From an uncultured Candidatus Binatia bacterium (GTDB lineage: Bacteria > Desulfobacterota > Binatia > UBA9968 > CAXXLF01), in assembly GCA_965218425.1 (NCBI GenBank), contig OZ244621.1:1696001-1760000 (forward strand): DNA of 64,000 bases. The letters run 5' to 3'. How positions within the stretch are numbered: position 1 is the stretch's first letter; each line of letters starts with the position of its first letter. Positions 1,969 to 48,817 of this stretch are shown piece by piece. The notes under the pieces were generated by a model. That model did no database searches and was not told the DNA's origin. It was given only the letters and a program-made list of their open reading frames with translations. The position numbers were made by a program, and so were the translations under genes.

Positions 1969-2988
1969 ATGAGATTTTATCGGGCAGTGAAACTTGCCGG
2001 AGCATTCTTCATCTTGGCCTGGGCCCTATCGGGAGTCCTGGCGACCCCGTTACAGGCTCAGTCGGTGGTGGTCTATTCCTCCAGGATCGAGAGGCTGATC
2101 AAGCCCATGTTCGGCGCCTTCACGTCAAAGACAGGGGTCGAGGTCCGGTATTTTACCGCTAAAGTGTCCGAGCTGTTTGAGAGGCTCAAGGCCGAGGGGC
2201 CCAACACCCCCGCCGATCTATTCATGACCGTGGACGCCGGGAACCTCTGGATCACAGAGCAGGCTCGACTTCTCCAGGGGTTCAAGTCGGACATTGTCGC
2301 AAAGAACATCCCTGCCCACTTGCGCGCTGGAGACAACTCCTGGGTGGGGCTCACGGTCCGCGCCAGGCCCGTCATGCACAGCACCAAAAGGGTCAAACCG
2401 TCCGAGTTGTCCACCTATGAGGCATTGGCTCAACCCCGTTGGAAGGGAAGGCTCTGCCTGCGCACGTCGCGAAAGGTTTACACCCTCTCGCTGGTGGCGA
2501 CCATGATGAAGTCGCTGGGTGAGAAACGCACGGAAGAGGTGGCTCGCGGGTGGATCGCCAACAAGCCGAGGATCTTTAACAGCGACACCAGGCTGATCAA
2601 AGCCATGGGCGCGGGTCAGTGCGACGTGGGCATCGCCAACACCTACTATCTGGCCCGTCTCAAGGCGAAGGACGCCGGGTTTCCGGTGGCGGTTTTTTGG
2701 CCCAACCAGAAGGGTCGCGGCGTGCATGTCAATATTTCCGGCGCCGGGGTGACCCGCTATGCCAAGAACCGGGATAATGCCGTCAGGCTAATCGAGTTCC
2801 TGAGCTCACCGGATGCCCAGAGCCTATTTGCCGATGCCAACTACGAGTATCCCGCCAACCCGGCCGCCAAGCCCCACAGCCTGATCGCAAAGTGGGGCGC
2901 CTTCAAAGGGGATCAGGTGGACGTGGCCGCAGCCGGGGCCTTGCAAGCGGCGGCGGTGAAGCTCCTGGACCGCGTCGGTTACAAGTGA
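1969..2988 (+). CDS. Fe(III) ABC transporter substrate-binding protein (FutA/FbpA/IdiA family)
   Basis: Signal peptide, VYSSR, EGPNTPADLFMTVDAGNL, NTYY, GVHVNISGAGV, ANYEYP; AAGGAG RBS before ATG 1969. Confidence 0.92.
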   Translation: MRFYRAVKLAGAFFILAWALSGVLATPLQAQSVVVYSSRIERLIKPMFGAFTSKTGVEVRYFTAKVSELFERLKAEGPNTPADLFMTVDAGNLWITEQARLLQGFKSDIVAKNIPAHLRAGDNSWVGLTVRARPVMHSTKRVKPSELSTYEALAQPRWKGRLCLRTSRKVYTLSLVATMMKSLGEKRTEEVARGWIANKPRIFNSDTRLIKAMGAGQCDVGIANTYYLARLKAKDAGFPVAVFWPNQKGRGVHVNISGAGVTRYAKNRDNAVRLIEFLSSPDAQSLFADANYEYPANPAAKPHSLIAKWGAFKGDQVDVAAAGALQAAAVKLLDRVGYK

Positions 2989-3000
2989 GGTGAAGAGTCG

Positions 3001-4701
3001 GTGAGCATCGGGGGAAACGCACAACGTCGCGCGTCCCGGTCATGGCGGGATCCCTGGTTTCTGGCGGCCGGCATCGTCGCGCTGCTCGTGGCAACCCCCA
3101 TCCTGGTGGTGCTCTCATCACTGCTGACGCCAAGCCTCGATGTCTGGGCCCATCTTTGGGAGACTCAACTTCTCGAGCTTGTACGGAACACTTTTTTATT
3201 GATAATCGGAGTCGGATCGGGCGTGCTCGTCCTGGGCACCGGGCTTGCATGGCTGGTGACCATGTACCGCTTTCCGGGTCGGGGGATCTTCGAGTGGCTT
3301 CTGATTCTCCCCCTGGCGATTCCCGCCTACGTGATCGGGTTCGTGTTCCTGGCCATCTTCGACTACGCGGGGCCGGTGCAGAGCCGGCTTCGGGCGCTGT
3401 TGGGACCCGACATCTGGTTTCCGGATTTCGCCTCCTACGGCGGGGTCACCCTCGTCATGACCCTGGTGCTCTACCCTTACGTCTACATGCTGGCGAGAAC
3501 CGCCTTCATGGAACAGGCGGCCGGCACCATGGAGGCGGCGCGTTCTCTGGGCGCTCGGCCCCTGGCGGTTTTCTGGAACGTGGCGCTGCCCCTGGCGCGG
3601 CCCTCCATCGCCGCGGGACTGGCTTTCGCCCTGATGGAGACATTGGCGGACTTCGGCACGGTCGCCATATATGGATACCCGACGTTCACGGTGGCTGTTT
3701 ACCGCGTCTGGTACGGCCTGTTCGACCGCGCCGCGGCCACTGAGCTGGCCGGCATCCTCATGATGTTCGCCCTGGGACTGTACTTGATGGAGCGCATGGC
3801 CCGCGGCCATGCCCGCTTCTTTCAAACGGAAGGAACCGTGCGGCCGGCGTTCGCCAAAAGACTGTGCGGCTGGCGGGCATGGACGGCCAGCGGGGTGGTC
3901 GGCCTTGTGGTTGGAGTCGCATTCGTCCTTCCCGTCCTCCAGTTGTCGCTGTGGGTGGCGGGAAGCGCCGAGTTCGATGCACGCTATCGTGAATTCCTTT
4001 TCACCACGCTCATGTTGGGCGGGGTCACGGCTGTTCTGGCGGTGGCCGTTGCAGTGTTGGTGGCCTACGGGCTGCGCCTTAGCCGCAATCGAATCATCCC
4101 GGCATTGGCGCGGATAGCCAGCATGGGTTACGCCCTTCCGGGATCGGTGATCGCCGTGGGAGTGTTGGTCCCGCTCGCTTTCGTGGATCGCACATTGGAT
4201 GGTTTTTTGCGCGCCACATGGGGGATCTCCAGCGGTCTCCTCTTGACGGGAACCATGGTCACGTTGATCTTTGCCTATCTGGTTCGATTCCTGGCCGTCG
4301 GTTTTCATACGGTGGAGGCGAGCCTGGTAAAAGTCACCCCTAACATGGACATGGCCGGGCGGTCCCTCGGGGTGGGTAAAGGGGGGGTGCTCCGGCGAAT
4401 TCACCTGCCTCTCATCAGGGGCGGGCTGAGCGCCGCCGCGCTTCTGGTATTTGTGGATGTGATGAAGGAGATGCCCGCCACGCTTCTCCTGAGGCCGTTC
4501 GGTTATGAAACCCTGGCCGTGCGCGTTTGGCAGCTCACGTCCGAATCCTTTTGGGAGGCCGCCGCCCTGCCGGCCCTGACCATTGTCGCGGCGGGTATCC
4601 TGCCGGTCATGTTACTGATTGCAGGCGGCGCTCCGGCCTTCTCTTCCCGCGGGGATCCTTCGGCGGCGAGTGACTCGATTCCCGTTGTCGCCGCGCCGTA
4701 A
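3001..4701 (+). CDS. Fe(III) ABC transporter permease (FutB/FbpB family)
   Basis: Two permease repeats with EAARSLG loop, METLADFG, VMKEMPATLLLRPFGYETLA. Confidence 0.92.
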   Translation: MSIGGNAQRRASRSWRDPWFLAAGIVALLVATPILVVLSSLLTPSLDVWAHLWETQLLELVRNTFLLIIGVGSGVLVLGTGLAWLVTMYRFPGRGIFEWLLILPLAIPAYVIGFVFLAIFDYAGPVQSRLRALLGPDIWFPDFASYGGVTLVMTLVLYPYVYMLARTAFMEQAAGTMEAARSLGARPLAVFWNVALPLARPSIAAGLAFALMETLADFGTVAIYGYPTFTVAVYRVWYGLFDRAAATELAGILMMFALGLYLMERMARGHARFFQTEGTVRPAFAKRLCGWRAWTASGVVGLVVGVAFVLPVLQLSLWVAGSAEFDARYREFLFTTLMLGGVTAVLAVAVAVLVAYGLRLSRNRIIPALARIASMGYALPGSVIAVGVLVPLAFVDRTLDGFLRATWGISSGLLLTGTMVTLIFAYLVRFLAVGFHTVEASLVKVTPNMDMAGRSLGVGKGGVLRRIHLPLIRGGLSAAALLVFVDVMKEMPATLLLRPFGYETLAVRVWQLTSESFWEAAALPALTIVAAGILPVMLLIAGGAPAFSSRGDPSAASDSIPVVAAP

Positions 4702-4744
4702 ATGCAATAGACGTGAATCCATCAAGGCGAAACGAATACGATCC

Positions 4745-6676
4745 ATGAAGCGGGTATTTCTTTTTTCAGTCCTGTCGTTGCTCCTGGCGGCCCATCACGC
4801 CGTTGCGGATGAGACCCGGCGTTTCCTCCTCATTGTGGATTACATCGGGAGCGACTACGCAGTTGCGGTTCAAGGTGGAAAGATAGTCAATGCGGGGGAG
4901 TATCGGGAGATGGAGTCCTTCAGCGCGGATGCCCTTTCCCTCTTCGCTTCGCTCCCTCCTCCCGCCGACCGGAAGGCATACGGTCGGATTCAGGCAAAGC
5001 TCAAGGAGCTCCGGCGTCTGGTGCGGAGCAAAGCGGATCCGTCCGTGGTGGCCGGCCTCACCGGGGAGATCAAGAGCGCCGCGGTTGATCTCTATCAGGT
5101 GACGACCTTCCCCTTGAAGGCCCCCTCGCTCAAGAAAGCCGAGAGGTTTTACAGGGAAAACTGTGCGGTATGTCACGGCGTGGACGGAGGCGCCAAAACC
5201 GCCCTGGCAAAGGAATTGAACCCCCCGCCGACGAATTTTCGCGATCCCTCGGTCATGGCGGGGCTTTCACCCTTTAAGGCCTTCAACGTCCTTTCATTCG
5301 GGATACCGGGCACGGGCATGCCTTCCTTCGACGCCTTCAATGAACAGGACCGGTGGAGCCTGGCCTTTTACCTTTTCTCCCTGCGCTTCGACCCCGGTGA
5401 AATCACCGGAGGAGAAGCCCTTTGGGCGGACCGGAGCCGCAAGGAAATCGGCGAATTGAAAACCCTTGCGTCGCTTACCGACGGGGAGCTGCTAGAACGA
5501 ATGGGCGCCGGGAGGGGTGAAACAGAGGACGCGGGAAGATCCGTATTGGCGTATTTACGCGGGGGACTCCCTGAAAGCGTGGTTCTTGATCCCCTTTCCT
5601 ATTCCCTCGCTCAGCTCCGTCTGAGCGTTCGGGAGCTCAAAGCGGGGAATCGAGACGGAGCGTATCAAGCCGTGCTGGAAGCCTATCTGGAGGGGTTCAA
5701 GCTCGTGGAGCCGGACCTGCGCGCGGCAAACCCGGACAGGGTCCCTGAGATCGAACGGATGTTCCTGGCCGCCCGAGGGGCGCTTAAAGGATCCGATTCC
5801 AAGCTTGCCCTTCCCTTGCTGGCGCAACTCGGTGAAGAACTCGTCAAGGTCCGGAGCGATTTGGGATCGGGTCCATCAGGCGCCTCCTTTGCCTTCTTCA
5901 ATTCCATGGCCATTATCCTCAGGGAGGGACTGGAGGCCGCCCTGATCGTAGCCGCTATCCTTGCCTTGCTTAGATTGTCGGGCCAGCGCGCGGCCATGAT
6001 CTATGTTCATTGGGGCTGGATCGGCGCCATTGGAGCGAGTCTGCTCACGTGGTTGGCGGCGGAGTTTCTAATCGCCATTAGCGGATCCAACCGGGAGCTG
6101 GTGGAGGGAATCGCCTCCTTGCTGGCGGCTGTGGTTTTGTTTTACGTGAGCTTCTGGTTGCTGGCAAAGCTGGAGACAAGGAAGTGGACCGACTTTATCA
6201 GATCCAAAGTAGAGACGGCTCTTTCCAAGGGGCACGTAACGGCCCTGGCGGGGGTCTCTTTTCTTGCCGTCTATCGGGAAGGATTCGAAACGGTTCTTTT
6301 TTATCAGGCGCTTCTTTTAAGCAGTTCTTCCACCCAGGGCTCGGTGCTTTTGGGATTTGTCGCGGGTGTTGCCTTGCTTATGGTTTTCATCGTCGCCATC
6401 TTCAGGGCGGGCTTGCATTTTCCGGTGCGTTATCTTTTCGGTTTCACGAGCGGGTTGCTTTATATTCTGGCCGTTATTTTTGCGGGCGAGGGAATCTACC
6501 GCCTGCAACAGGTGGATCTCTTGGGCGCCACCTCCGTAAACTTTCCTTCCTTTCCCATGCTGGGGATCTACCCCAGCCTCGAGGGCCTTCTCCTCCAGGG
6601 AGCCATGCTTTTTCTCTTCATCTCCTCACTGCTATGGTTCTTCGTCCTCTTGCCCAGACGGGCAGTGTCCGCTTAG
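4745..6676 (+). CDS. Cytochrome c / FTR1-family iron permease fusion (PbrT/EfeU-like)
   Basis: Signal peptide, CAVCH heme motif, GIPGTGMPSF, two FTR1 motifs REGLE and REGFE in a hydrophobic C-terminal domain. Confidence 0.9.
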   Translation: MKRVFLFSVLSLLLAAHHAVADETRRFLLIVDYIGSDYAVAVQGGKIVNAGEYREMESFSADALSLFASLPPPADRKAYGRIQAKLKELRRLVRSKADPSVVAGLTGEIKSAAVDLYQVTTFPLKAPSLKKAERFYRENCAVCHGVDGGAKTALAKELNPPPTNFRDPSVMAGLSPFKAFNVLSFGIPGTGMPSFDAFNEQDRWSLAFYLFSLRFDPGEITGGEALWADRSRKEIGELKTLASLTDGELLERMGAGRGETEDAGRSVLAYLRGGLPESVVLDPLSYSLAQLRLSVRELKAGNRDGAYQAVLEAYLEGFKLVEPDLRAANPDRVPEIERMFLAARGALKGSDSKLALPLLAQLGEELVKVRSDLGSGPSGASFAFFNSMAIILREGLEAALIVAAILALLRLSGQRAAMIYVHWGWIGAIGASLLTWLAAEFLIAISGSNRELVEGIASLLAAVVLFYVSFWLLAKLETRKWTDFIRSKVETALSKGHVTALAGVSFLAVYREGFETVLFYQALLLSSSSTQGSVLLGFVAGVALLMVFIVAIFRAGLHFPVRYLFGFTSGLLYILAVIFAGEGIYRLQQVDLLGATSVNFPSFPMLGIYPSLEGLLLQGAMLFLFISSLLWFFVLLPRRAVSA

Positions 6677-6833
6677 GGTCCCTGCTGTCGCCCCGCTCGC
6701 GCCGCTGCCCGGCCTGTTCGGCATGGCACTCGGCACAATCGAGGCGTTCCGCCGACTGGAACGGGCGGGCAGTCAGGCGGGCCACGGCTATACTCCCGGG
6801 CGCACTCCGGAAGGCTCTCTTGACCGGCGCTTG

Positions 6834-6933
6834 CGGGCTGACGGCGGCGATCCCGATCGTCAATCGGTTGACATTTTGGTTTCGTTATAGGATCTTTCCA
6901 CTTCCGGGCTGACGATGGCGATCCCGATCGCCA
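6834..6933. repeat. Two 29-bp direct repeats, each carrying a palindrome, flanking a TTGACA
   Basis: 6834-6862 and 6905-6933 are 26/29 identical; second copy holds perfect TGGCGATC-CC-GATCGCCA; TTGACA at 6868-6873. Confidence 0.8.
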
Positions 6934-7028
6934 CGATTCTCAATTGCCCGGAACGCCGAGTCGATTGCGCTATCCACGAGATGAGCGGGCACAACGACAC
7001 GGCGGTCGCAAGGAGAGAGGAGAGAGGA

Positions 7029-7460
7029 ATGAAGATCACGAATTCGACCAGGCACATCGTGCTTGCCGCCGCGATGACGCTTATTTGCCCGGCGGCCGGC
7101 GCGGCGGATCAACGGGTGCTCGTGGAGCTAAACAAGCTCGAGGCCAACAAGAAGGACGCCTGCCGCGCCTACATGGTAATGAAGAACGAAGGCGCGACTC
7201 GATTCGAGACCCTGAAGCTCGATCTGGTGATCTTCGACGCGGACGGCATCATCGCCAAGCGGCTCGCGGTCGAAGCGGCGCCGCTGCCGGTCGGAAAGAC
7301 CAGCCTCAAGGTGTTCGACATCAACGGTCTGGCATGCGCGCGGATCGGCCGCTTGCTGCTCAACAACGTCATCGACTGCGTCGACAGCACCGGACGGCGC
7401 GGGGATTGTCTGGCCCTGGTCTCGACCCGCGCGCGGGGATCGGTGGACTTCGTCAAGTGA
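7029..7460 (+). CDS. Exported protein of unknown function with four Cys in the mature part, upstream of exbB
   Basis: Signal peptide ending AAGA; VELNKLE...CR, LKLDLVIFD..G, FDI..LAC..IGRLLLN.VIDC; AGAGGA RBS. Confidence 0.75.
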   Translation: MKITNSTRHIVLAAAMTLICPAAGAADQRVLVELNKLEANKKDACRAYMVMKNEGATRFETLKLDLVIFDADGIIAKRLAVEAAPLPVGKTSLKVFDINGLACARIGRLLLNNVIDCVDSTGRRGDCLALVSTRARGSVDFVK

Positions 7461-7462
7461 CC

Positions 7463-8191
7463 ATGGACCCCACCGCTTACCACGTAGCCTCTCTCTCGGC
7501 GGTGTCCGAACGGATGTTGGGGTGGCTCCAACTGGGCGGACCCGTGGTTATGGTTCTGTTGGCCATGTCGGTGCTGGCGCTGACCATCGTGATCATCAAG
7601 CTCTGGCAGTTCCGTGCGTTGCGGATCGGTGACCTGGGTCCGGCGCGGGAGGCGGCGGAGCTCTATTGCCGCGGTCGGCCGGACGCCGCCCTGGCGCTGG
7701 CAGGGCGAACCGGGAACCCGGTCGCCGGGATGCTGTCACAGGCCATGCGCGGGCAGCGCCGCGGCCTTCCGGAGGCAAAGGTGCGCGAGGAGGTCATCCG
7801 GCATGCAGGTGATGTCCTGGAGTCATTGCGCGCCGGGTTGCGGCCGTTGGAGGTGATCGCCTCGCTCGCGCCGCTGCTCGGCCTGTTCGGCACGGTGCTG
7901 GGCATGATCGAGGCGTTCCGCCGCCTCGAACAGGCGGGCAATCAAGCGGATCCGGCGATCCTTTCCGGCGGCATCTGGGAAGCGCTGCTGACCACCGCGG
8001 TGGGGCTGGCCGTGGCCATACCGGTGGTGGCGGTTCTCAACTGGCTGGAACGGCGGGTCGATCGCCTTGAGCACGAGATGGACAGCATCGTCACCCGGGT
8101 CTTCACGGTTGACTTGTCCGACGGTCCCGAAAAGGAGGAGGGCCATGCGTCAACACAACTACGCGATGCGGCCCCGCATGCCGTCGAATAG
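7463..8191 (+). CDS. exbB: MotA/TolQ/ExbB proton-channel family protein
   Basis: GGPVVMVL, APLLGLFGTVLGMIEAF, GGIWEALLTTAVGLAVAIP. Confidence 0.9.
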   Translation: MDPTAYHVASLSAVSERMLGWLQLGGPVVMVLLAMSVLALTIVIIKLWQFRALRIGDLGPAREAAELYCRGRPDAALALAGRTGNPVAGMLSQAMRGQRRGLPEAKVREEVIRHAGDVLESLRAGLRPLEVIASLAPLLGLFGTVLGMIEAFRRLEQAGNQADPAILSGGIWEALLTTAVGLAVAIPVVAVLNWLERRVDRLEHEMDSIVTRVFTVDLSDGPEKEEGHASTQLRDAAPHAVE

Positions 8192-8576
8192 GGCCGGTGG
8201 GCGTCGGGGGTTGATCCGCCTGACGCCGCTGATCGATGTCGTGTTCATCCTGCTCATCTTCTTCATGCTGGCATCGAGCTTTCTGGACTGGCGCGCCCTG
8301 GACTTGACCGCCGCCTCCGAGGCGGAGGCCGGCGCGTCCATGGAGGGAGCGCTGCTGGTGGAAATCCGCAGTAACGGCTTGCGGCTGTCGGGCGAATCCA
8401 TCTCCCTTGACGCCCTTGGCGGTCGTATGGAGGCCCGGGCGGAGATGCGACCCGGTCAGCAGGTGCTGGTAAAGCCGGCCCGCGGCATCACGGTGCAGGA
8501 AGCGGTCCGGGTCCTTGATCGGATCGCGGGAGCGGGAATCACCCAGCTTTCTCTGATTCGTGACCCGGATGCGTAG
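8145..8576 (+). CDS. exbD: Biopolymer transporter ExbD (copy 1, canonical Asp)
   Basis: LTPLIDVVFILLIFFML transmembrane motif; start uncertain. Confidence 0.88.
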   Translation: MRQHNYAMRPRMPSNRAGGRRGLIRLTPLIDVVFILLIFFMLASSFLDWRALDLTAASEAEAGASMEGALLVEIRSNGLRLSGESISLDALGGRMEARAEMRPGQQVLVKPARGITVQEAVRVLDRIAGAGITQLSLIRDPDA

Positions 8577-8991
8577 CTATCGATCCTCAGGCTCCGGGCG
8601 GCCCCGGGTGAAAAACGATGAGGAGCGTATTCTGCCGCTTATCAACGTCGTGTTCCTGCTGCTCATTTTTTTCATGCTCGCCGGACAATTTGCCGCTTTG
8701 GACCCGTTCCGGATAGAGCCGCCCAGTTCGCTGACTCAAGAGCAGCCGGAAAGGCAGGCGATGGAAGTGCTGATGGACGTCGACGGACAGCTTGCCCTTG
8801 ACGGCGCCGTCATCGGGGCCATGGCGCTCAAATCGGCCGTCTCGACGCGCAAGTTCAGGGAAGGCGTCGTTAACGTTCGGTTGAAGGCCGACGGGCGGGC
8901 GGACGCAACGCGGGTGGTCGTGGTGATGGAGTTGTTGCGCGATGCCGGTGTCGAGAAGCTCCACCTTCTCACCTCGGCGGGGAAACCCTGA
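8569..8991 (+). CDS. exbD: Biopolymer transporter ExbD (copy 2, Asn at the conserved Asp)
   Basis: ILPLINVVFLLLIFFML; LKADG...VMELLRDAGV. Confidence 0.85.
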   Translation: MRSYRSSGSGRPRVKNDEERILPLINVVFLLLIFFMLAGQFAALDPFRIEPPSSLTQEQPERQAMEVLMDVDGQLALDGAVIGAMALKSAVSTRKFREGVVNVRLKADGRADATRVVVVMELLRDAGVEKLHLLTSAGKP

Positions 8992-9941
8992 TGCGAATCC
9001 TCTGGTACCATTGGATGATAGGGTTTTCATCGGCCCTGCTGATGCATGCGGTCGCCATGGCCGGACTGTTGTGGGAGCCGAAGATCCCCAGGGCCGAAAG
9101 CACCGGAAGCGCCGAGAGCACCGAACCGGCCGGGGTCGAGATATCCCTTGGCCCTGCCGTCACTCGGCCGGGCAGCGTTGCCGGAGCGATCACGGAGATA
9201 CTTAAGGCGGAAAGGGTGGCGGCCGCCGAAGCCGCCCTGCAAGGACCTAGTGTAAAGACGGTGGCAACGTCGCCGGCGCCGGTTCAGGCAGAGGCCGTGG
9301 AATCCGTCGATGCCCCGGAGGTGGAGGCGGTGACCCCGGCCGTCACTACCGAGATGCAGGCAGTGACCCCCGCCGTCGCCACCGAGGTGCAGGCAGTGAC
9401 CCCGGTCGTCACTACCGAGGTGGAGGCCGTGGGGGCCGTGACCGCCGCCACTGCCGTGGAGGTCGAATCGGTTGCGTCACGGCCGGTGGAGCAGGCGTCG
9501 CGTGCGGAGTCGGGCGAAGCGGTGTCGTCCGGGCCGACTCCGGCGCCGGGCCCGGCTGAAAAGGGCGGCGCGCCGCAGCGGGGGGAGACCGCGGCGCGCA
9601 CGGTTGGGGCGACGGGCGCCCTTGACTCATCGGGCGCCGGCGGCGCGCCCCGCGCGCAGGGGGATTACGTGGGGCGGCTGCAATCATGGTTGGGAAAACA
9701 CAAAAAATATCCCAGAAGAGCCCGGGTCCGCCGTCAGGAAGGCACGGTTCTTCTCCATTTAGTGATAGACCGGGACGGGAGCTTGCGGGAATACCGGATC
9801 AAGGAGAGCAGCGGCTATGATTTATTGGACCGGGCGGCCATTGCAATGATCGAACGCGCTCAGCCGCTGCCGCGGTTTCCTGACAGCTTGGATCGGACAC
9901 GGATTGTGCTGGTGGTCCCGGTTCAGTTCGTACTGCGGTAA
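8991..9941 (+). CDS. tonB: Energy transducer TonB
   Basis: N-terminal helix SALLMH, low-complexity linker, C-terminal KKYPRRA..RRQEGTV...SSGYDLLDRAA...VPVQF. Confidence 0.9.
   Translation: MRILWYHWMIGFSSALLMHAVAMAGLLWEPKIPRAESTGSAESTEPAGVEISLGPAVTRPGSVAGAITEILKAERVAAAEAALQGPSVKTVATSPAPVQAEAVESVDAPEVEAVTPAVTTEMQAVTPAVATEVQAVTPVVTTEVEAVGAVTAATAVEVESVASRPVEQASRAESGEAVSSGPTPAPGPAEKGGAPQRGETAARTVGATGALDSSGAGGAPRAQGDYVGRLQSWLGKHKKYPRRARVRRQEGTVLLHLVIDRDGSLREYRIKESSGYDLLDRAAIAMIERAQPLPRFPDSLDRTRIVLVVPVQFVLR
9318..9431 (+). repeat. In-frame 33-bp tandem repeat in tonB linker (3 full copies plus partial)
   Basis: Encodes EVEAVTPAVTT/EMQAVTPAVAT/EVQAVTPVVTT/EVEAV. Confidence 0.85.
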
Positions 9942-10050
9942 ACCCATAGGCGGCTTATCCCTTTTCCGGAATTCTTCTCTAAACACTAGAGACTCAACAC
10001 TTCTTGACCGGTAGCTGAAAGCTGAGGCCGCTCGGCACTTTAACTCGTTG

Positions 10051-40096: not shown

Positions 40097-40276
40097 ATGG
40101 AACGCACCCCGTTTATTCCTGCCCAGTGCGATGTCTTCGGTGGTCTGGATGTGGATGAGAAAAGCATTGGGGCGACCTTCATCAGCCATGAAGGATTGCT
40201 CAAGCCGTTGAGCCCGCCCCTCGATCCATTGACTGCTAACCGCAGTGCCGTTCAGGAAGTCGAATCGTCAAACTGA
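40097..40276 (+). mobile_element. IS110-family transposase N-terminal remnant
   Basis: GGAGG RBS then MERTPFIPAQCDVFGGLDVDEKSIGATF, resembling the GLDV RuvC-like start of IS110 transposases; ends after 59 codons. Confidence 0.55.
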
Positions 40277-40759
40277 TTTGGCCAAATAGCCGGCGATCAG
40301 ACCGGCAATGAGCGGGAAAAGAAAACTTGCAATTATTCGAATGGCAAAGAGCCTTGGACCCAGGATACTGACTTCGTAAAATGCAATCCCACCGCCCCAG
40401 ATGGCCCATGAAGTAATAAAGGTCGTGACGGTGGCAACACTTGCTCCCGCCTGATAGAGCGATGCAGCGACTGGGAAACTTACAAAGGGACCACCGAATA
40501 TGGCAAAACCAGCAAGATAACCGACTGCAATCCCTTTTAACCCAGACTCTTTTCCCAGCCATCCTTGAATGACGGTCTCGGGCAAGAGGACTTGGATGTA
40601 GCCCGCGATCAACGTGGCACAGACAAAAGCAGGAATGATAGCAAAAAGCGTCTTTATGCCTTTTGACATACCCGAAATGTGGCGGCCGTCGCCCTGAAGA
40701 TAGGCGCCGAGGGCGAGCAGTAAAACAATGGTAACGAGCATAATATTCATTGCTTTCAC
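40268..40759 (-). CDS. Predicted small permease (ArsP/DUF318-like half)
   Basis: Hydrophobic; WLGKESGLKGI..GGPFVSFPVAASLYQAGAS..FITSW; GGAGG RBS. Confidence 0.8.
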   Translation of the reverse strand: MKAMNIMLVTIVLLLALGAYLQGDGRHISGMSKGIKTLFAIIPAFVCATLIAGYIQVLLPETVIQGWLGKESGLKGIAVGYLAGFAIFGGPFVSFPVAASLYQAGASVATVTTFITSWAIWGGGIAFYEVSILGPRLFAIRIIASFLFPLIAGLIAGYLAKSV

Positions 40760-42880: not shown

Positions 42881-44388
42881 TCATCCAAAAATCAGTGATT
42901 TGACGACCACGGGGACGGCGCCGCGATTTTTTAGTTCTTGCCCGATATCGATAAAATCCAGATCACGTAGCTCCACCTCATCGACGATCACCACATCCGG
43001 TATTACTTCCAGCTCTTGCTTCAACAGAGTTCCCAACAACCCACCAATATCCGAATCCAGGACAAGGACCCATGGGGCATCATTATTCCTGGAAGCTAAC
43101 GCCGTGGAAATACCACAAGCCAGGGCGAGGACCGACGAGTATGAAAAATCAAACGGCCAGTGAAAGAACAGCGCAATGAGGTGCTGCGAATCCAGTTGTG
43201 GAACATCCAAGCTCTCCATGGCCCCATGGATGGAACTTGCCACTCCTTCCGCGGTGAGATGGTCAGGCTCAAGGCGAGGGACCACCACCTGATAGTCCCA
43301 GAGTGGAAGTATCTGAGGATCGGAGAGAAAAATGGTGCTGCTTGAAACCTGCACCGTGTACTGAGAAGCCCCGATCACGGTGGCACGTATCTTTTCGACG
43401 CCTTCACCGAGGGACGTACCCACGGTGGGCAGGCGTAAACGGATCTCCTCCGCCAAAAGCGGACCCAGGTCCCCATAATCCCGGTGATCCTGGCGGTAGA
43501 TGTATTCAGCCACGCCCCCAGAAAAAATAATCTCGTCGATGGGGCCTTTATAATTTAAAGGCCCCGTGATCAAGAGTTCACCAGTCAGGGGCGACAAGGA
43601 TTCACGGCGCAGAAACTCGAACAACGCGTCGGCCAGGGTTTTAGCAATCCGTCGCTTTTCCTCTGGTAATAGCTTCGCGCCCAGATCCCCATGGACACCG
43701 ATTTTCTGTAGGACTCGCCGACCTGTCTCCTCCATGCGGATTAGGTCACCCTGAAGATCCCACGCGATGAGTCGGGCTCCTATATTGATGGCACCGGTTT
43801 CGAGAACCGAGCCGCCGCGAACAAAGGTTGTCTTGCAGGTTCCGCCGCCCACGTCCACGTTGAGGACCGTCCTGTCCCCATGGGCGCGTGCCACGGCGCC
43901 GGATCCATGTGCTGAAAGGATACCCTCTAAACGAGGGCCGGCGGTTGCGCAAACGAACTTTCCACCCATGGTGGAAAGCATGCGAGTAATCGCCTCCGAG
44001 TTCTTTTTCTTGACGGCTTCACCCGTGCAGATCACGGCTCCGGTATCTATCTGGGACGGTAGCAGACCCGCCTCTGTGTACCCTCGGTTGATAAAGGCCG
44101 AAAGCCTTTCGGTGTTGATGGTCTCGCCGTCGCGGTAAGGCGTGAGAAGGATGGGGTCCGATGCAGCACGTCGCGGCGAACCACCACGAAGCGGCTCGAT
44201 AGACTTAGTCCTTGCCGCTCCAAAAAGAGCTTGGAAAAGGTAACGTGTGACGTCGTAGAGCCGACATCGATGCCAACGCTATTCAGAATAAGCCATCCGG
44301 GATTGGGGGCGAGGTTGGCCTGGGGATCAATCTCGCCACCCTCTGGGTGCTCCTCAAGCTCATCCGGATGGTGGTGGTCATGGCCCAT
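42881..44388 (-). pseudogene. EutA-like (ethanolamine ammonia-lyase reactivase family) protein split by a 1-bp frameshift
   Basis: SVGIDVGSTTSH in ORF 44047-44388; ILLTPY..IDTGAVICTGEA, ATAGPRLE, NVDVGGGT, IRATVIGASQ, VPVVVKSLIF in the other frame; break at G4 run 44153-44156. Confidence 0.85.
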
Positions 44389-44433
44389 GGTTCGTTTCTC
44401 GCGCTCTGTGATGACCTAGGGATCGGTCCGGTT

Positions 44434-45561
44434 CTATGGGTGGTAGTTTACGGGGGGCATCTTGAGATCGATCCCTTTTTGCTTCAGGGTCTGCGCAAAG
44501 TCCTTGCGAACCCGAGGGTCCTCGTCCTCGTAATCGATGAGGGTACCACCCTCCTTGACGCTTATGTAGCCGCTAAAGTCTTCACCCACCGTAAGGTTGT
44601 ATCCCGGGATACCCGAGTTACCTCCATAGATCGCCAGGTGGCGGGCAGGCCCGGTGCTTGTGTTCAGGTGCTGGTGAAACCAGCCGTCGGGTGGGGTATA
44701 GATGCTGCGTGGCCCCCAGTTAATTTTCAAGACCTTATCACCGGCCCCCGCGGCGTAGGGACGGGTTCCTGTATCCCGAGGCCATACCAAAACATACCCC
44801 TCACCCAACAGACCCACCAGAATGGCGCCTGGGCCGTGATAGTGAGCTTTGTGATACCTTCCGGCGGGCCATTCGGAAACATGGCCGTAAGGGAAACCAT
44901 CCGCCATTCGATAACCGGTGAGCTGGCCACCGGCGACTTTCTGTTCCAGGTTGTCCAGAAAGGCGGCCTTGGCGTCTGGTATAAAGTTTGTGTACCAGAT
45001 GGTCGAAAACCTACCCTCTTTTTCTCGGTTTTCTGTGGGGGTGAAATAATCTGCCTTACTGCCAAATTGATCCAGAAACTTGTAATCGCAATTGAAGATG
45101 AAATCGTGGGGACCAAAGACGCTCATTACTTTAGGAGCGGTGGTCACTCCGAGAAATAGCGCGGGTTCACGGGTGCCGTTTAAGAGACGATGCCAGCAGT
45201 TACGAGGTGGAGCAAAGACACTCCCCTCACCCCATTCAAAGGCTCGCTTGGCTCCACCTTCCTGCCATATCTCGGTTATCCCCCGGCCCTTCAAGATGAC
45301 AATGGCCTCCTGATAGAGGTGCTTCTCCGGATTCAGGGCTTTGCCTCCGGGAATTTCAGCCACATAGAGTCCTCGCTCCGCCTGTTTCGCGCTCAGCATT
45401 TGGACGAAGGTGCCCGAGCCTCCCGTGCGGGCCCAGGCTTTCCTCGGGAGTTCGGCAAGGTCGTCGGTTCCTGCTATGGTTTCAACAATGGGAATCCCTT
45501 CTCCTTCCATCCACGTTTGATAGGGGTATCTATCCCTGGCGTCTCTTTTTTGCTGTTCCAA
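44434..45561 (-). CDS. Tandem cupin-domain protein of unknown function
   Basis: EKHLYQE..GRG.TEIW, PPRNCWH, YHKAHYHGPG, PPDGWFHQH, IDYEDEDP. Confidence 0.85.
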   Translation of the reverse strand: MEQQKRDARDRYPYQTWMEGEGIPIVETIAGTDDLAELPRKAWARTGGSGTFVQMLSAKQAERGLYVAEIPGGKALNPEKHLYQEAIVILKGRGITEIWQEGGAKRAFEWGEGSVFAPPRNCWHRLLNGTREPALFLGVTTAPKVMSVFGPHDFIFNCDYKFLDQFGSKADYFTPTENREKEGRFSTIWYTNFIPDAKAAFLDNLEQKVAGGQLTGYRMADGFPYGHVSEWPAGRYHKAHYHGPGAILVGLLGEGYVLVWPRDTGTRPYAAGAGDKVLKINWGPRSIYTPPDGWFHQHLNTSTGPARHLAIYGGNSGIPGYNLTVGEDFSGYISVKEGGTLIDYEDEDPRVRKDFAQTLKQKGIDLKMPPVNYHP

Positions 45562-45594
45562 TGGTTTCCTCCTCCCTTTGGTGTTCTCCCGTGC

Positions 45595-46581
45595 TTAAAC
45601 CGCTGGTAAGCCCATGGCTCTCTGTGCGTTGGTTCCCAGGATTTGAGCTCGTTCTTCCGTCGAAATGGCATCCAAGGCCTTGATCTTGGCAACGGGTTCT
45701 CTGTCTCCCATACCCATGGGATAATCGGTTCCTATTACGACTCGATCTGCGCCCACCACTTGAATGAGGTACTGCAACGCCAGGACCGAGTGCACAACGG
45801 AATCAAAATACATTTGCTTCAGGTAGGCGGAGGGCTTTTGCGGCGTATGCTCCCTGAGATCTTTTCTTATGGAATGGGCGTGGTCCAGGCGCCAGATATT
45901 AAAGGGTAGGAGACCACCCCCATGTGCCAAGCAAAGGCGAAGGTTCTGATACTTTTGAAAGATCCCCCTGAGAATCATTCGCTCGATCATGAGGGTCGTA
46001 TTGTAGGGAAATGCTAAGACGTTGCCCAACACCCCTCGGCTTAAAGAAGAATCCCCTCCTTCAATTGGATGAATGAACAGTAAAAGGTCGAGTTGTTGCG
46101 CCATGTCGTAGAAGGGTTCCAGCTCGGGATCGTCCAACGGTTTACCCTGAACATGGGTGCCCACCTCGATACCCTTCAAACCCAGGTGGCACGCCTCTTT
46201 CGCGATGGTCGTAGCTTCCGAGACGCTCTGAAGGGGAGCGGTGCCGAATCCCACGAACCGGTCGGGGCGTGTTTCCACTGTCTGTTGAATGGCTTCATTT
46301 TGCAGGCGGGAGAAATAGGCTGCGGGTTCGGGTTGGTCCCAATAGTATAACAGGATCGGGGACGGTGATATGGCTTGGAGATCGATGCTCATCTTGTCGA
46401 GTTCCCGGACCCTCGCCTCAACGTCGTAAGCTCCTTCGCTCAAACTGCCGCGACTTCCCCCACGTGAGGTGACCGAATAGCGGCCATCGGTTAGTTTTAT
46501 CTCAGGGCCATGCTCTTTGAATTTTGTCGCATTTTGAAAGGCCTTTAAGGGGAAAAAATGGGAGTGGAGATCAATGTTCAT
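45595..46581 (-). CDS. Amidohydrolase 2 family decarboxylase/hydratase (ACMSD/LigW-like)
   Basis: IDLHSH, FIHP, LAHGGG, YFDSVV, GTDYP. Confidence 0.9.
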   Translation of the reverse strand: MNIDLHSHFFPLKAFQNATKFKEHGPEIKLTDGRYSVTSRGGSRGSLSEGAYDVEARVRELDKMSIDLQAISPSPILLYYWDQPEPAAYFSRLQNEAIQQTVETRPDRFVGFGTAPLQSVSEATTIAKEACHLGLKGIEVGTHVQGKPLDDPELEPFYDMAQQLDLLLFIHPIEGGDSSLSRGVLGNVLAFPYNTTLMIERMILRGIFQKYQNLRLCLAHGGGLLPFNIWRLDHAHSIRKDLREHTPQKPSAYLKQMYFDSVVHSVLALQYLIQVVGADRVVIGTDYPMGMGDREPVAKIKALDAISTEERAQILGTNAQRAMGLPAV

Positions 46582-46606
46582 GGCTGGTCCTAAACTCTTG
46601 GCTTAC

Positions 46607-47650
46607 CTACGGCTGAAAGAGAGCCGCAACTTTCGTTGAGTTGAATATATAGGTTTCACCATATGCCACAACCTCCGCTTTTCGGTGAGCCATGGCACCT
46701 GCTAAACAAAGCCAATTTAAGAGTTCGTGCTGGCCGGCGTCGGTCAAGGTTTCTGGTTCCAGATTGCGCCATTCGCTGTGTCGTCCAGTGCTCAACTCTT
46801 GGAGCCGTTTGCGGTCGGAATCCACATCGGGATAGAGACCATAGTGCTTCCCCGTCAAAAAGGCGTGGGACCACGATGAGGAACCGATCAGCACTGCGCG
46901 CCATGGGCTATCCTGCAGAATTCGGGCAACCTCAGCCCCAAGGTCGAAACAGCGCTTGGGCGTAGGCGCCGGCGGAGCTTTCTCTCCTTGCGCAAAATCG
47001 GTTGCCGCTCGTTTCGAAATAAGGTCGCTCCCGTAACAATTGACGTGAAAAGGAATAATGGGGTAGTCGAATCCACGCTGGTCGTAGTCGAGGTATATCA
47101 GGGTTCGCATAAAGGCGTGGGCTAGGCCGGGATGGTGGTGAGGCTTGTAGGAGTAACATACATCGAAGTTGTTTAGCGTAAGTTCTCGTGCCAGATGATG
47201 GGCTGCCAAGCGGTGACTGCGCACAGAGACGACCTTATCCTCCGGTTGACCCCAGACATTGACAGGCGAATTGATAACCGAACTCCGGCGGAACGGATAA
47301 CATTCGAGCTGGTCAAAGACGTACACACAAAAGGGCGGCACGATGTCTTCCTTAAAATTTTCGTATTGGTCGTCCCCCCAGATGAGCACAAAATCCGGCT
47401 TGAATGCGCCAATCTCCGCACGGAGTCGGCGAAAGCCGTGCACCACGAGCTCGCGGTGCCGCCGGGCCGAGGTTAGACCTTCGTCGTCTCCCCACTCCGA
47501 CTGCATGGGTTCAGGCCAGTGACGTACGTCCCGCAAATGATCCGGTAGGCGAGGACTCTTCATGAACCGGCGCAGGATGTCGGCCATATTTTCGTCTGGG
47601 AACTGAAACATCGGGGCGTGGGTGACCCCCATTCCCAGCAGTTCTGCCAT
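46607..47650 (-). CDS. Extradiol ring-cleavage dioxygenase class III subunit B (LigB-like)
   Basis: GVTHAP, WGDDQYENF, LAHAF, SSSWSHAF, GQHELLNW. Confidence 0.88.
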   Translation of the reverse strand: MAELLGMGVTHAPMFQFPDENMADILRRFMKSPRLPDHLRDVRHWPEPMQSEWGDDEGLTSARRHRELVVHGFRRLRAEIGAFKPDFVLIWGDDQYENFKEDIVPPFCVYVFDQLECYPFRRSSVINSPVNVWGQPEDKVVSVRSHRLAAHHLARELTLNNFDVCYSYKPHHHPGLAHAFMRTLIYLDYDQRGFDYPIIPFHVNCYGSDLISKRAATDFAQGEKAPPAPTPKRCFDLGAEVARILQDSPWRAVLIGSSSWSHAFLTGKHYGLYPDVDSDRKRLQELSTGRHSEWRNLEPETLTDAGQHELLNWLCLAGAMAHRKAEVVAYGETYIFNSTKVAALFQP

Positions 47651-47668
47651 GGCGTGCCTCCTATTTTT

Positions 47669-48817
47669 TCAGTCTAAGACGGGCTTTGTGGAGTCAAATT
47701 CTATGATTCGATTTTTCTCCGGGTCGCGCACCAGCGCCATGGGTTCGCCGCCTCTCTGAACCACCTCGATCTGCTTGCGAAGCATCTTGCGGTACATAAT
47801 AATCCCTTCGTCCGATGATCCAAGGTTTTCTTGACTCCGATCGAAAATACTTCCCTGTGTTTCCCAGGCCATTTTGTCCTGGCTGGAAAAGGAGGTCATC
47901 TCGTGCTCACCCTCCGGCGTTATCAACGAATCCATGAAATTAACTTTGGGGTCTTGCGCTCCATTGGTGGACCGGGGCTTGGTTTTGGGATCGAAACACA
48001 TGACGATGATCCGGGTATGGGTATCGTCGATGGGGACCCGCCAGTGGAGCGCTTCAATATATCCCTGGGGTATGCGGAGGATATTCGGAAAGACGAGGGG
48101 AGGACGTGTTTCTCTTTCAGGCCGGTCTCCTCCGTAAACACACCGCTTGATGATCCCCCATTCACAGATTTCCCAGTCGTAGTCCTGCACCGGCCGGTAG
48201 TAAAACAGGCCTTGCGGATCGCCCAGTTGCGCCATGGTGTGGCCGTGGAGATAGTAAGTGTGGATCGTATCAACAGAGTTCTCCATGGCCTGGAGCCAGT
48301 TGCAGCTGAGCACGGGATGGACGTCAATGGATCGGGTCCCGTCTGTCCTCACAAGAACGTCCCATCGAGGTAAGAGAGTCTTTTTTTCTGGGGGCCCCAT
48401 GTAAACGAAAAGCACGCCGGCCAGCCTCTCCACCGGATAACTCAGATGGCATACCTTGTTCTTGAACTCTGGATTCTTTTCGAAAGGTTGCTCCAGGCAC
48501 TTCCCGTCGATGTCATATTTCCAGCCGTGGTAGGCGCATCGGATGCCATCCGGTTCTACGAAACCGTAAAAGAGCGAGGTTCTCCGGTGGGGGCAATGCT
48601 CGCCAACACATCCGTACGGGCTCTCCTGACTGCCCTGTGCGCTTGGGAGACGAAACACCACGAGCTCTTCGTCCATAATTTTAACGCGCTTTTTGGGACT
48701 CTCTTCTGTAAGCTCACTGGCCAGACAGACCGGTTGCCAGTAACGACGCAAGAGCGCACCCGCTGGTGTGCCTGGACCGACTTGGGTTAATAGCTCGTTT
48801 ACCTCGCGCGTGAGCAT
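47669..48817 (-). CDS. Rieske non-heme iron oxygenase alpha subunit (phthalate 4,5-dioxygenase/LigX-like)
   Basis: LTQVGPGTPAG..LRRYWQP, CPHR...CAYHGW, CNWLQAMENSVDTIH..LH, QDKMAWETQG. Confidence 0.93.
   Translation of the reverse strand: MLTREVNELLTQVGPGTPAGALLRRYWQPVCLASELTEESPKKRVKIMDEELVVFRLPSAQGSQESPYGCVGEHCPHRRTSLFYGFVEPDGIRCAYHGWKYDIDGKCLEQPFEKNPEFKNKVCHLSYPVERLAGVLFVYMGPPEKKTLLPRWDVLVRTDGTRSIDVHPVLSCNWLQAMENSVDTIHTYYLHGHTMAQLGDPQGLFYYRPVQDYDWEICEWGIIKRCVYGGDRPERETRPPLVFPNILRIPQGYIEALHWRVPIDDTHTRIIVMCFDPKTKPRSTNGAQDPKVNFMDSLITPEGEHEMTSFSSQDKMAWETQGSIFDRSQENLGSSDEGIIMYRKMLRKQIEVVQRGGEPMALVRDPEKNRIIEFDSTKPVLD

Follow-up and report, generated by a model that had tools for sequence, protein, structure and literature searches.

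A bicupin and a EutA-like ATPase form a conserved gene pair, independent of EutBC, at the end of an aromatic-degradation operon of a Candidatus Binatia bacterium

Why should a relative of EutA, the reactivating factor of ethanolamine ammonia-lyase, close an operon for the degradation of aromatic compounds? The question is raised by a 64,000-nt stretch of DNA from an uncultured Candidatus Binatia bacterium (the whole stretch is called the window here), whose genome is a single contig of 4.46 Mb, 97% complete. This genome is labelled G000 and its relatives G001, G002 and so on; fetched loci carry L-numbers and representative proteins P-numbers. Between positions 42881 and 48817, five genes on the - strand, separated by 18, 25, 33 and 45 bp, encode a Rieske oxygenase alpha subunit, a LigB-type extradiol dioxygenase, an amidohydrolase, a bicupin and a EutA-like protein. 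Coordinates, strand and gaps, when re-derived, agreed with the five co-oriented genes described in the initial annotation. The functional unit is best explained as a two-gene module consisting of a gentisate-dioxygenase-like bicupin and a dedicated ATPase of the EutA family and ASKHA fold. The two genes co-occur, are usually adjacent and have been duplicated together, and the ATPase clade is independent of EutBC.

The bicupin (44434..45561, - strand, 375 aa, TTG start, PF07883 (Cupin_2), with a fold like that of gentisate and salicylate dioxygenases) is followed by the EutA-like gene (42881..44388, - strand), which matches PF06277 in two pieces. In three genome samples, the bicupin and the EutA-like clade were found together in 76 of 613 genomes and neither was found alone in any. 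They occupy the identical 20 of 151 genomes in a sample of the class, the identical 43 of 201 in Xanthobacteraceae, and 13 of 261 in Chloroflexota; the Xanthobacteraceae and Chloroflexota samples each include a centre genome picked for having the ATPase. In the class sample, EutA-like genes are present in all 20 genomes of the order, at 3-9 copies each, and in none of the 131 others. Two more Chloroflexota genomes lack the bicupin but have a EutA of lower score; these EutA genes lie in eutA-eutB-eutC operons and group with canonical EutA. Three genomes in which the fetched ATPase does not lie beside a cupin have 6, 7 and 24 bicupin matches elsewhere. Conversely, the sole family bicupin adjoins the EutA-like gene in G192 and G196, and both copies flank it in G194; G193 holds 43 bicupins.

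Adjacency is frequent as well as co-occurrence. G000 has 59 full-length bicupin paralogues, one of its most expanded enzyme families, and nine EutA-like loci, a tenth, short and weak match having been left out of the count. Five of the nine lie directly behind a bicupin of the same family, one behind a more distant bicupin, and one behind two small open reading frames (ORFs) at or just under the Cupin_2 cut-off (one matched directly, the other via its G002 orthologue); two have no cupin. If the genome is taken to have ~4100 genes, of which 59 are bicupins, the binomial probability of five such adjacencies is about 7e-8, which excludes chance. A same-strand bicupin lies <=400 bp upstream at 25/39 informative loci of the order and at 33/76 informative loci of the genome_contigs set, 1 and 4 loci respectively having been dropped for short flanks; the 80 genome_contigs loci were the best of 580 candidates and partly overlap the order set. 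The fetched loci cover Binatia, Chloroflexota, Alpha- and Betaproteobacteria and Actinomycetota, and the genes flanking the pair vary (ATP synthase, a Lon-like protein, transporters). The linkage of cupin and EutA-like gene is thus kept across phyla, and the part of the initial annotation that proposed a conserved, apparently undescribed module of these two genes without eutBC has held. The pair is also found in cultured Sinorhizobium and Phyllobacterium strains and so is directly testable. No cupin-EutA fusion was seen in 120 loci, no dedicated search for longer homologues having been made; three long EutA-like representatives bear an unrelated N-terminal extension. The cupin-like terminal stretch of P0240, considered as a possible fusion, looks like a read-through artefact. 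Among the genes near the pair, NicO nickel/cobalt transporters occur at 3/139 loci (L116, L124, L130), as found with two single-sequence queries that failed to find each other, and a YjbE-family gene stands beside it in L147.

The histories of the two genes also match. Four deep subclades of the ATPase have their counterparts in four bicupin subclades, and the patristic distances of each ATPase and its adjacent bicupin correlate (Spearman coefficient 0.85, 66 pairs). In 10 genomes that hold more than one pair (27 pairs in total) the coefficient is 0.79, and it falls to 0.04 +/- 0.09 when partners are shuffled only within a genome, so that species history alone does not suffice to explain the co-phylogeny. 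Since physically linked genes duplicate together, this co-duplication indicates a long-kept pairing and not binding of the two proteins.

Several lines of evidence separate this EutA-like clade from the EutA that serves a B12 enzyme. No EutB or EutC was detected in G000 under conditions in which an E. coli control gave the expected match, and no methylmalonyl-CoA mutase was found there; three B12-binding domains are present. EutB was found in 0/61 genomes of the order. In Xanthobacteraceae, EutB occurs in 21/43 pair-positive and 81/158 pair-negative genomes (Fisher p 0.86) and is therefore independent of the pair; 81 EutB-positive genomes of this family have no EutA match at E <= 1e-40. The initial annotation had seen no eutB or eutC with this EutA-like gene. 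The protein does belong to the family, as the C-terminal piece of the window gene scores 282 bits against PF06277 (cut-off 27) and the intact G002 orthologue 391 bits. Against the NCBIfam EutA equivalog models the window pieces reach 124-228 bits, the cut-offs being 598-952, in a scan that covered the broken pieces only. In a first tree (FastTree), 8 EutB-linked EutA rows, from E. coli, three haloarchaea and four Bacillota/Fusobacteriota, split from 131 others with a support of 99. A second tree, to which two Chloroflexota were added, separated 10 EutB-linked from 28 other rows with a Shimodaira-Hasegawa-like approximate likelihood ratio (SH-aLRT) of 100. The EutB-linked outgroup is small, and long branches were flagged in the FastTree tree. 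The protein thus stands in a clade of its own and does not group with canonical EutA.

Other members of the family were encountered in these trees. A Heimdallarchaeota branch falls between the EutB-linked group and the others, with neither cupin nor EutB nearby (L109, L113, L122, L144), and a further branch (P0223, P0241, P0260) has a ~180-aa N-terminal extension with Cys/His motifs and no Pfam match. The EutA-like paralogues of G000 cluster with records named Candidatus Binatia. One of them (G000:C1:961788-963416), with His-rich stretches at both ends, belongs to a subclade of 22 rows that is common across the order and never adjoins a cupin. Another, highly divergent copy with altered phosphate motifs (G000:C1:3024153-3027029, also in L033) follows a UbiD-like gene and two short ORFs that resemble cupins.

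The anatomy of the ATPase is largely that of EutA. The model of the intact G001 orthologue (predicted local distance difference test score, pLDDT, 92) has an ASKHA domain at about residues 33-350 and a C-terminal alpha/beta domain with conserved D447, D470 and D481. The phosphate-1, phosphate-2 and adenosine motifs are near-invariant in the clade. Nearly all columns that are invariant in the 8 EutB-linked EutA are retained (the nucleotide motifs, T83-P84, T122-G123, N130, E155, R206, D307, D470, D481, K497), and few new invariant polar residues have appeared. This retention speaks for an unchanged biochemical task performed on another client. No Cys was found among the invariant or >=90% conserved columns of 132 EutA-like sequences. 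The VIA fold neighbours of the ATPase domain comprise a Ppx-like chain (Z 19.9), FtsA (Z 17.6), PilM and DdrA (Z 15.1). DdrA-type reactivases have a swivel domain whose Mg2+ site lies where the partner binds. As a swivel domain, the C-terminal domain gave no match in these searches: Pfam returned only EutA for 7 C-terminal pieces and Atlas nothing usable, and in VIA searches with the whole model the matches to the ATPase domain prevailed. The His/acidic N-terminus of the window protein reads MGHDHHHPDELEEH, as quoted in the initial annotation. At least 4 His occur at one end in 51/137 representatives; with 86/137 lacking such a tail, it is not essential.

The bicupin resembles ring-cleaving dioxygenases in fold and metal motif. 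A PDB sequence search found no close solved structure for it, or for the window LigB, and its profile matches gentisate dioxygenase 3bu7 with E 2.9e-7. The model of the G001 orthologue (pLDDT 89) aligns in VIA with 3bu7 (Z 20.2, root-mean-square deviation (rmsd) 3.9, 270 aligned) and with salicylate dioxygenase 2phd (Z 19.6); seed globulins and oxalate decarboxylase follow within about 2 Z in the same ranking, and the top Foldseek matches are MncA and oxalate decarboxylase. Its nearest Atlas clusters are mostly from Ca. Binatota. The C-terminal barrel bears the sequence motif H240-x-H242...H296-x-H298, in which H240, H296 and H298 occur without exception (59/59 paralogues, 62/62 EutA-adjacent copies) and H242 in nearly all (56/59 and 61/62). 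The full H-x-H motif is not present in the N-terminal barrel, where H124 is Tyr in 23/59 paralogues, and the basic residues R/K208 and K238 are retained. Cupin ring-cleaving dioxygenases have a three-His iron site and, two residues beyond the third ligand, a further His that binds the substrate, with the N-terminal barrel usually holding the iron in gentisate 1,2-dioxygenase (GDO) and salicylate 1,2-dioxygenase (SDO) (PMC10306065). By sequence, the bicupin has this three-His-plus-one pattern, sited in the C-terminal barrel.

What could the ATPase do for such an enzyme? EutA strips damaged cofactor from EutBC in an ATP-requiring reaction (PMC5821096), and the reactivase of glycerol dehydratase is described as releasing cofactor through a chaperone-like subunit swap (PMC7674605). 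Given that the EutA residues are kept, that the B12 client is absent and that the bicupin is the constant partner, the same job on a new client is the most economical model. By analogy, we therefore lean, at slightly better than even weight, towards an ATP-driven remodeller that reactivates the metal site of the bicupin or loads its metal. The bicupin would use H240, H242 and H296 of the C-terminal barrel to bind a divalent metal, Fe(II) being the most likely, and its substrate would be an anionic aromatic intermediate supplied by nearby Rieske oxygenases. Through its ATP cycle, the ATPase would bind and loosen the bicupin, as EutA does EutBC, letting a metal centre that is oxidised, wrong or blocked by product leave and a fresh one be loaded, with the His/acidic N-terminal tail as a possible holder of the metal. 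One ATPase could serve many bicupins in trans, and the ratio of nine EutA-like loci to 59 bicupins in G000 fits a helper better than a subunit.

A number of observations weigh against this proposal. Cupin dioxygenases are not known to require an ATPase. The profiled genomes are related, and the counts therefore overstate the number of independent events. The Heimdallarchaeota genome G195 has a member of the EutA-like branch and 0 bicupins, and the 22-row subclade that includes a G000 copy has no adjacent cupin. In fold, the ATPase domain comes nearest to exopolyphosphatases, with DdrA lower. Some conserved positions depart from canonical EutA (H48 in place of Q, K186 in place of N, and E295) and could mark a different chemistry. 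Finally, most representatives lack the His-rich end.

The role of the upstream genes has to be considered before the alternatives are compared. In a DNA search of 31 relatives, the five-gene operon as a whole was confined to G000, G001 and G002. The window-type LigB was found in 0/201 Xanthobacteraceae (single-protein query, without a positive control) although 43 of them carry the pair, and is hence not needed for it. The aromatic-degradation genes ahead of the pair are a local addition, and the initial idea of the five-gene operon as the system, with the LigB and the amidohydrolase as clients, is not supported. The association with Rieske oxygenases is broader. A LigXa-type Rieske gene is present in 43/43 pair-positive and 66/158 pair-negative Xanthobacteraceae. 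At 40 pair loci, chosen from 39 of the 43 pair-positive genomes, a Rieske gene occurs at 24, a Rieske ferredoxin at 19 and a gene for a 170-aa protein at 20. In G000, a Rieske gene lies no more than 4 kb from 20/63 bicupins (background 15%) and a LigB gene from 11/63 (background 5%); within ~5 kb, a Rieske gene was seen at 5/40 loci of the order and 5/80 genome_contigs loci. On the simplest reading of these gene contexts, the bicupins would act on the products of Rieske oxygenases in aromatic-acid catabolism.

Two recurrent arrangements of Rieske genes were noted. In Xanthobacteraceae (L163-L195) and at L119, L140, L151 and L156, a Rieske ferredoxin gene is divergent from a LigXa-type Rieske alpha gene, which is followed by the gene for the 170-aa protein; this cassette often stands between two bicupin/EutA-like sets and is not in G000. 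The 170-aa protein has no Pfam or PDB match and may resemble an FtsZ-like Rossmann fold. In G000, as well as in G001 and G002, a second Rieske gene (G000:C1:2879922-2882409), 73% identical in DNA to that of the window, is convergent with a close bicupin paralogue.

The source of electrons for these oxygenases is a question of its own. There are 85 Rieske alpha-size ORFs in G000, 83 with the cluster motif. The initial annotation had seen no reductase or ferredoxin in the operon; none was found there, and genome-wide there was no match to PF00175 (FNR-type) or PF14759 (Reductase_C), nor a tblastn match to two FNR-type reductases. Five weak GR-like matches look, by sequence and context, like ordinary disulfide oxidoreductases or transhydrogenases. 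PF00175 was not found in 25/41 genomes of the order. The sole small Rieske ferredoxin gene of G000 (C1:3101947) lies at the end of an apparent suf operon, and there is one small Fer2 ORF at C1:2004207. FNR-type reductases do occur in pair-containing clusters (L151 and L131; seen in Sinorhizobium and Modestobacter), and GR-type-like reductases in 4/40 Xanthobacteraceae pair loci. Sinorhizobium mexicanum and S. terangae have genes for Rieske oxygenase, ferredoxin, reductase, bicupin and ATPase together in a single cluster.

Against this background, it might be asked whether the module serves the Rieske oxygenases themselves, by activating them or by substituting for the missing reductase as an electron source. 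The many Rieske ORFs of G000 without an FNR-type or Reductase_C domain would suit this, and so would the presence of the Rieske type in every pair-positive genome of the Xanthobacteraceae, of a Rieske gene in over half of the pair loci there, and near 20 of the G000 bicupins. ATP-dependent electron-transfer activators of the HgdC/BcrAD type have conserved Cys ligands for a [4Fe-4S] cluster, whereas this ATPase has no conserved Cys for one. In addition, pair clusters can hold normal reductases of both types, 66 genomes carry this Rieske type but not the pair, and a Rieske gene is near few of the order and genome_contigs loci. We consider such a service improbable. Even less can be said for a conventional EutA serving a B12 enzyme whose genes lie elsewhere, its cupin neighbourhood being incidental: it passes the Pfam EutA cut-off, G000 does have three B12-binding domains, and EutB is present in 21 of the pair-positive Xanthobacteraceae, but the genome profiles contradict it. 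G000 has neither EutB, EutC nor methylmalonyl-CoA mutase, the order has no EutB, EutB is statistically independent of the pair, the 81 EutB-positive genomes are without a EutA match at the threshold given, and the clade is separate with a support of 99-100. This explanation is very improbable indeed.

Two further alternatives leave the partnership of bicupin and ATPase intact and change its nature. Sugar kinases and the A subunits of hydantoinases and oxoprolinases are examples of ASKHA-type phosphorylation or activation of small molecules. The pair may likewise be a two-component ATP-dependent enzyme, or catalyse consecutive steps, with the ASKHA protein phosphorylating or activating a small molecule and the metal site of the bicupin finishing the reaction. 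Strict co-occurrence and co-duplication suit subunits equally, the fold neighbours of the ATPase include phosphotransferases and phosphatases, H48, K186 and E295 are conserved specifically in the clade, and R/K208 and K238 of the bicupin fit an anionic substrate. Gene numbers, however, are far from 1:1 in G000 and with the 43 bicupins of G193, and the ATPase retains the EutA residues over its full length with few new invariant polar ones; we regard a joint enzyme as unlikely, while worth keeping in view. Alternatively, the ATPase might act on the bicupin in another manner, through assembly or disassembly of oligomers or as a regulatory nucleotide switch. The fold class includes FtsA, MreB and PilM, which are scaffolds or switches, and all linkage data are compatible with it, but among characterised homologues a reactivase is the nearest (PF06277 and the NCBIfam EutA models) and the His-rich tails would be left unexplained. 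The chances of this option appear slim. A reactivase or metal-loading factor for the bicupin thus remains the preferred explanation.

The copy in the window itself is broken. The gene switches frame after codon 78, where it is one base short at ~44155; DNA alignment with the intact G001 and G002 orthologues places the one-base deletion at 44153..44158 (- strand). The gene consequently reads as a 113-aa ORF, with 78 correct codons, and a 384-aa ORF from an internal GTG. The N-terminal piece (44155..44388, - strand, 78 codons) carries the His/acidic tail and the phosphate-1 motif, and its frame continues out of register to a stop at 44047; the C-terminal piece (42881..44155, - strand, 424 codons) matches PF06277 with E 9.8e-84. 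G001 (502 aa) and G002 (503 aa) each have an unbroken orthologue, with the five genes in the same order. Contigs assembled from 4/4 public runs examined, which belong to 3 studies and of which one is possibly the source, cross the site without a gap, so the break is in the DNA; assembled contigs display the majority allele only. An assembly error is ruled out by these gap-free short-read contigs. A programmed -1 frameshift was also rejected: the 140 bases surrounding the site contain no X_XXY_YYZ heptamer, and the frame is intact in both orthologues.

The damage is recent, as the C-terminal piece shows no further lesion in comparison with the G001 orthologue and is identical to it at 372/424 residues, the codon differences being synonymous in 112 cases and non-synonymous in 52. 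A restart at the internal GTG would remove the invariant T83, P84 and G117. From its sequence, the local copy is probably inactive, and we read the gene as a young pseudogene. Eight other EutA-like copies are present in G000, because of which the recent loss of the local ATPase would be tolerated. This locus is a poor choice for bench work, for which the intact orthologues or the rhizobial copies are better.

In this operon, the module would be appended to a pathway running from Rieske oxygenase to LigB to decarboxylase and acting on an aromatic acid. The Rieske alpha subunit (47669..48817, - strand, 382 aa, PF00355 and PF19301 (LigXa_C)) is of the phthalate 4,5-dioxygenase/LigXa (alpha3) type; its best PDB sequence matches are 7fjl (E 6.8e-48) and 7fhr, a putative phthalate 4,5-dioxygenase (E 4.5e-44), and it carries the CxH..CxxH cluster motif and the N-x2-D-x2-H-x4-H iron motif. 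The LigB-type (class III) extradiol dioxygenase (46607..47650, - strand, 347 aa, PF02900 E 6.7e-11) belongs to a divergent subfamily, scores under every NCBIfam cut-off and has only weak PDB matches (MhpB, E 6e-4). The ACMSD-like Amidohydro_2 amidohydrolase (45595..46581, - strand, 328 aa, PF04909) aligns over its full length with ACMSD 4ign (E 1.7e-61), the match to LigW being weaker, and is a probable non-oxidative decarboxylase. Purine-rich AGGA-type ribosome-binding sequences precede the first four gene starts and a weaker one the EutA-like start; scans for promoters and terminators gave matches at chance level only. In G001, ~440 additional bases lie between the amidohydrolase and the bicupin (L026:7977-8426). 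An ArsP_1 (PF03773) permease-like gene is near the pair in three loci, namely the window (40268-40759), L026 and L140. Elsewhere in the window, G+C is 60-65% at 2001-10000, where iron-uptake-like and TonB/ExbD-like ORFs lie, versus ~54% elsewhere, and this stretch is possibly acquired DNA.

Comparison with characterised systems places both partners near, and apart from, known proteins. With EutA (E. coli b2451, PF06277) the ATPase shares family and length, ~33% identity, the nucleotide motifs and the C-terminal acidic residues; it differs by its separate clade, the lack of EutBC linkage, its 3-9 copies per genome of the order, an often His/acidic N-terminal tail and its bicupin partner. The DdrAB and GdrAB reactivases have the same ASKHA ATPase domain (VIA against 2d0o, Z 15.1, rmsd 4.6, 248 aligned), whereas the EutA-like protein is a single gene, no DdrB-like small subunit was seen in the loci, and the client is not a B12 enzyme. 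Gentisate 1,2- and salicylate 1,2-dioxygenases are the best structural matches of the bicupin and share with it the H-x-H...H-x-H motif and aromatic-catabolism neighbourhoods, but the bicupin is only 10-14% identical to them, and its full His motif is in the C-terminal barrel where theirs is usually N-terminal (PMC10306065). An alpha3 Rieske oxygenase, a class III extradiol dioxygenase and an amidohydrolase-2 decarboxylase in one operon are features of phthalate 4,5-dioxygenase and LigXa-LigZ-LigW pathways; here the operon is without a reductase, neither usual type is in the genome, and the LigB is far from characterised members. The likeness to the LigXa-LigZ-LigW pathways is one of analogy.

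The bicupin/EutA-like pair is a real and apparently undescribed system; no description of it was found in a literature search whose coverage did not extend to subscription journals and bioRxiv supplements. This analysis adds that co-occurrence is strict across the genomes of three samples, for which EutB, Rieske and LigB served as controls, that the trees of the two genes agree within genomes, and that the locus carries a real frameshift. The results also point to a systematic mis-annotation, in which EutA-like genes are labelled 'ethanolamine ammonia-lyase reactivating factor', implying the use of ethanolamine in genomes without EutBC. Two pure bicupins, P0017 and P0028, are named 'reactivating factor for ethanolamine ammonia lyase' at NCBI, a label apparently carried over from the adjoining gene. 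Reactivases of the ASKHA fold are not known to have clients other than adenosylcobalamin enzymes, and oxidative inactivation of non-haem metal centres limits aromatic degradation and biocatalysis. We tentatively suggest, with rather less than even confidence, that the EutA-like clade may be an ATP-driven reactivase or metallochaperone for a mononuclear non-haem metal enzyme, which would enable tens of bicupin oxygenase paralogues to work beside Rieske oxygenases in Binatia, SAR202-like Chloroflexota and some Alphaproteobacteria and, in the boldest form of the idea, would also explain ~80 Rieske oxygenases without a recognisable reductase. If this is true, the ATP-driven repair of enzymes would take in non-haem metal centres as well.

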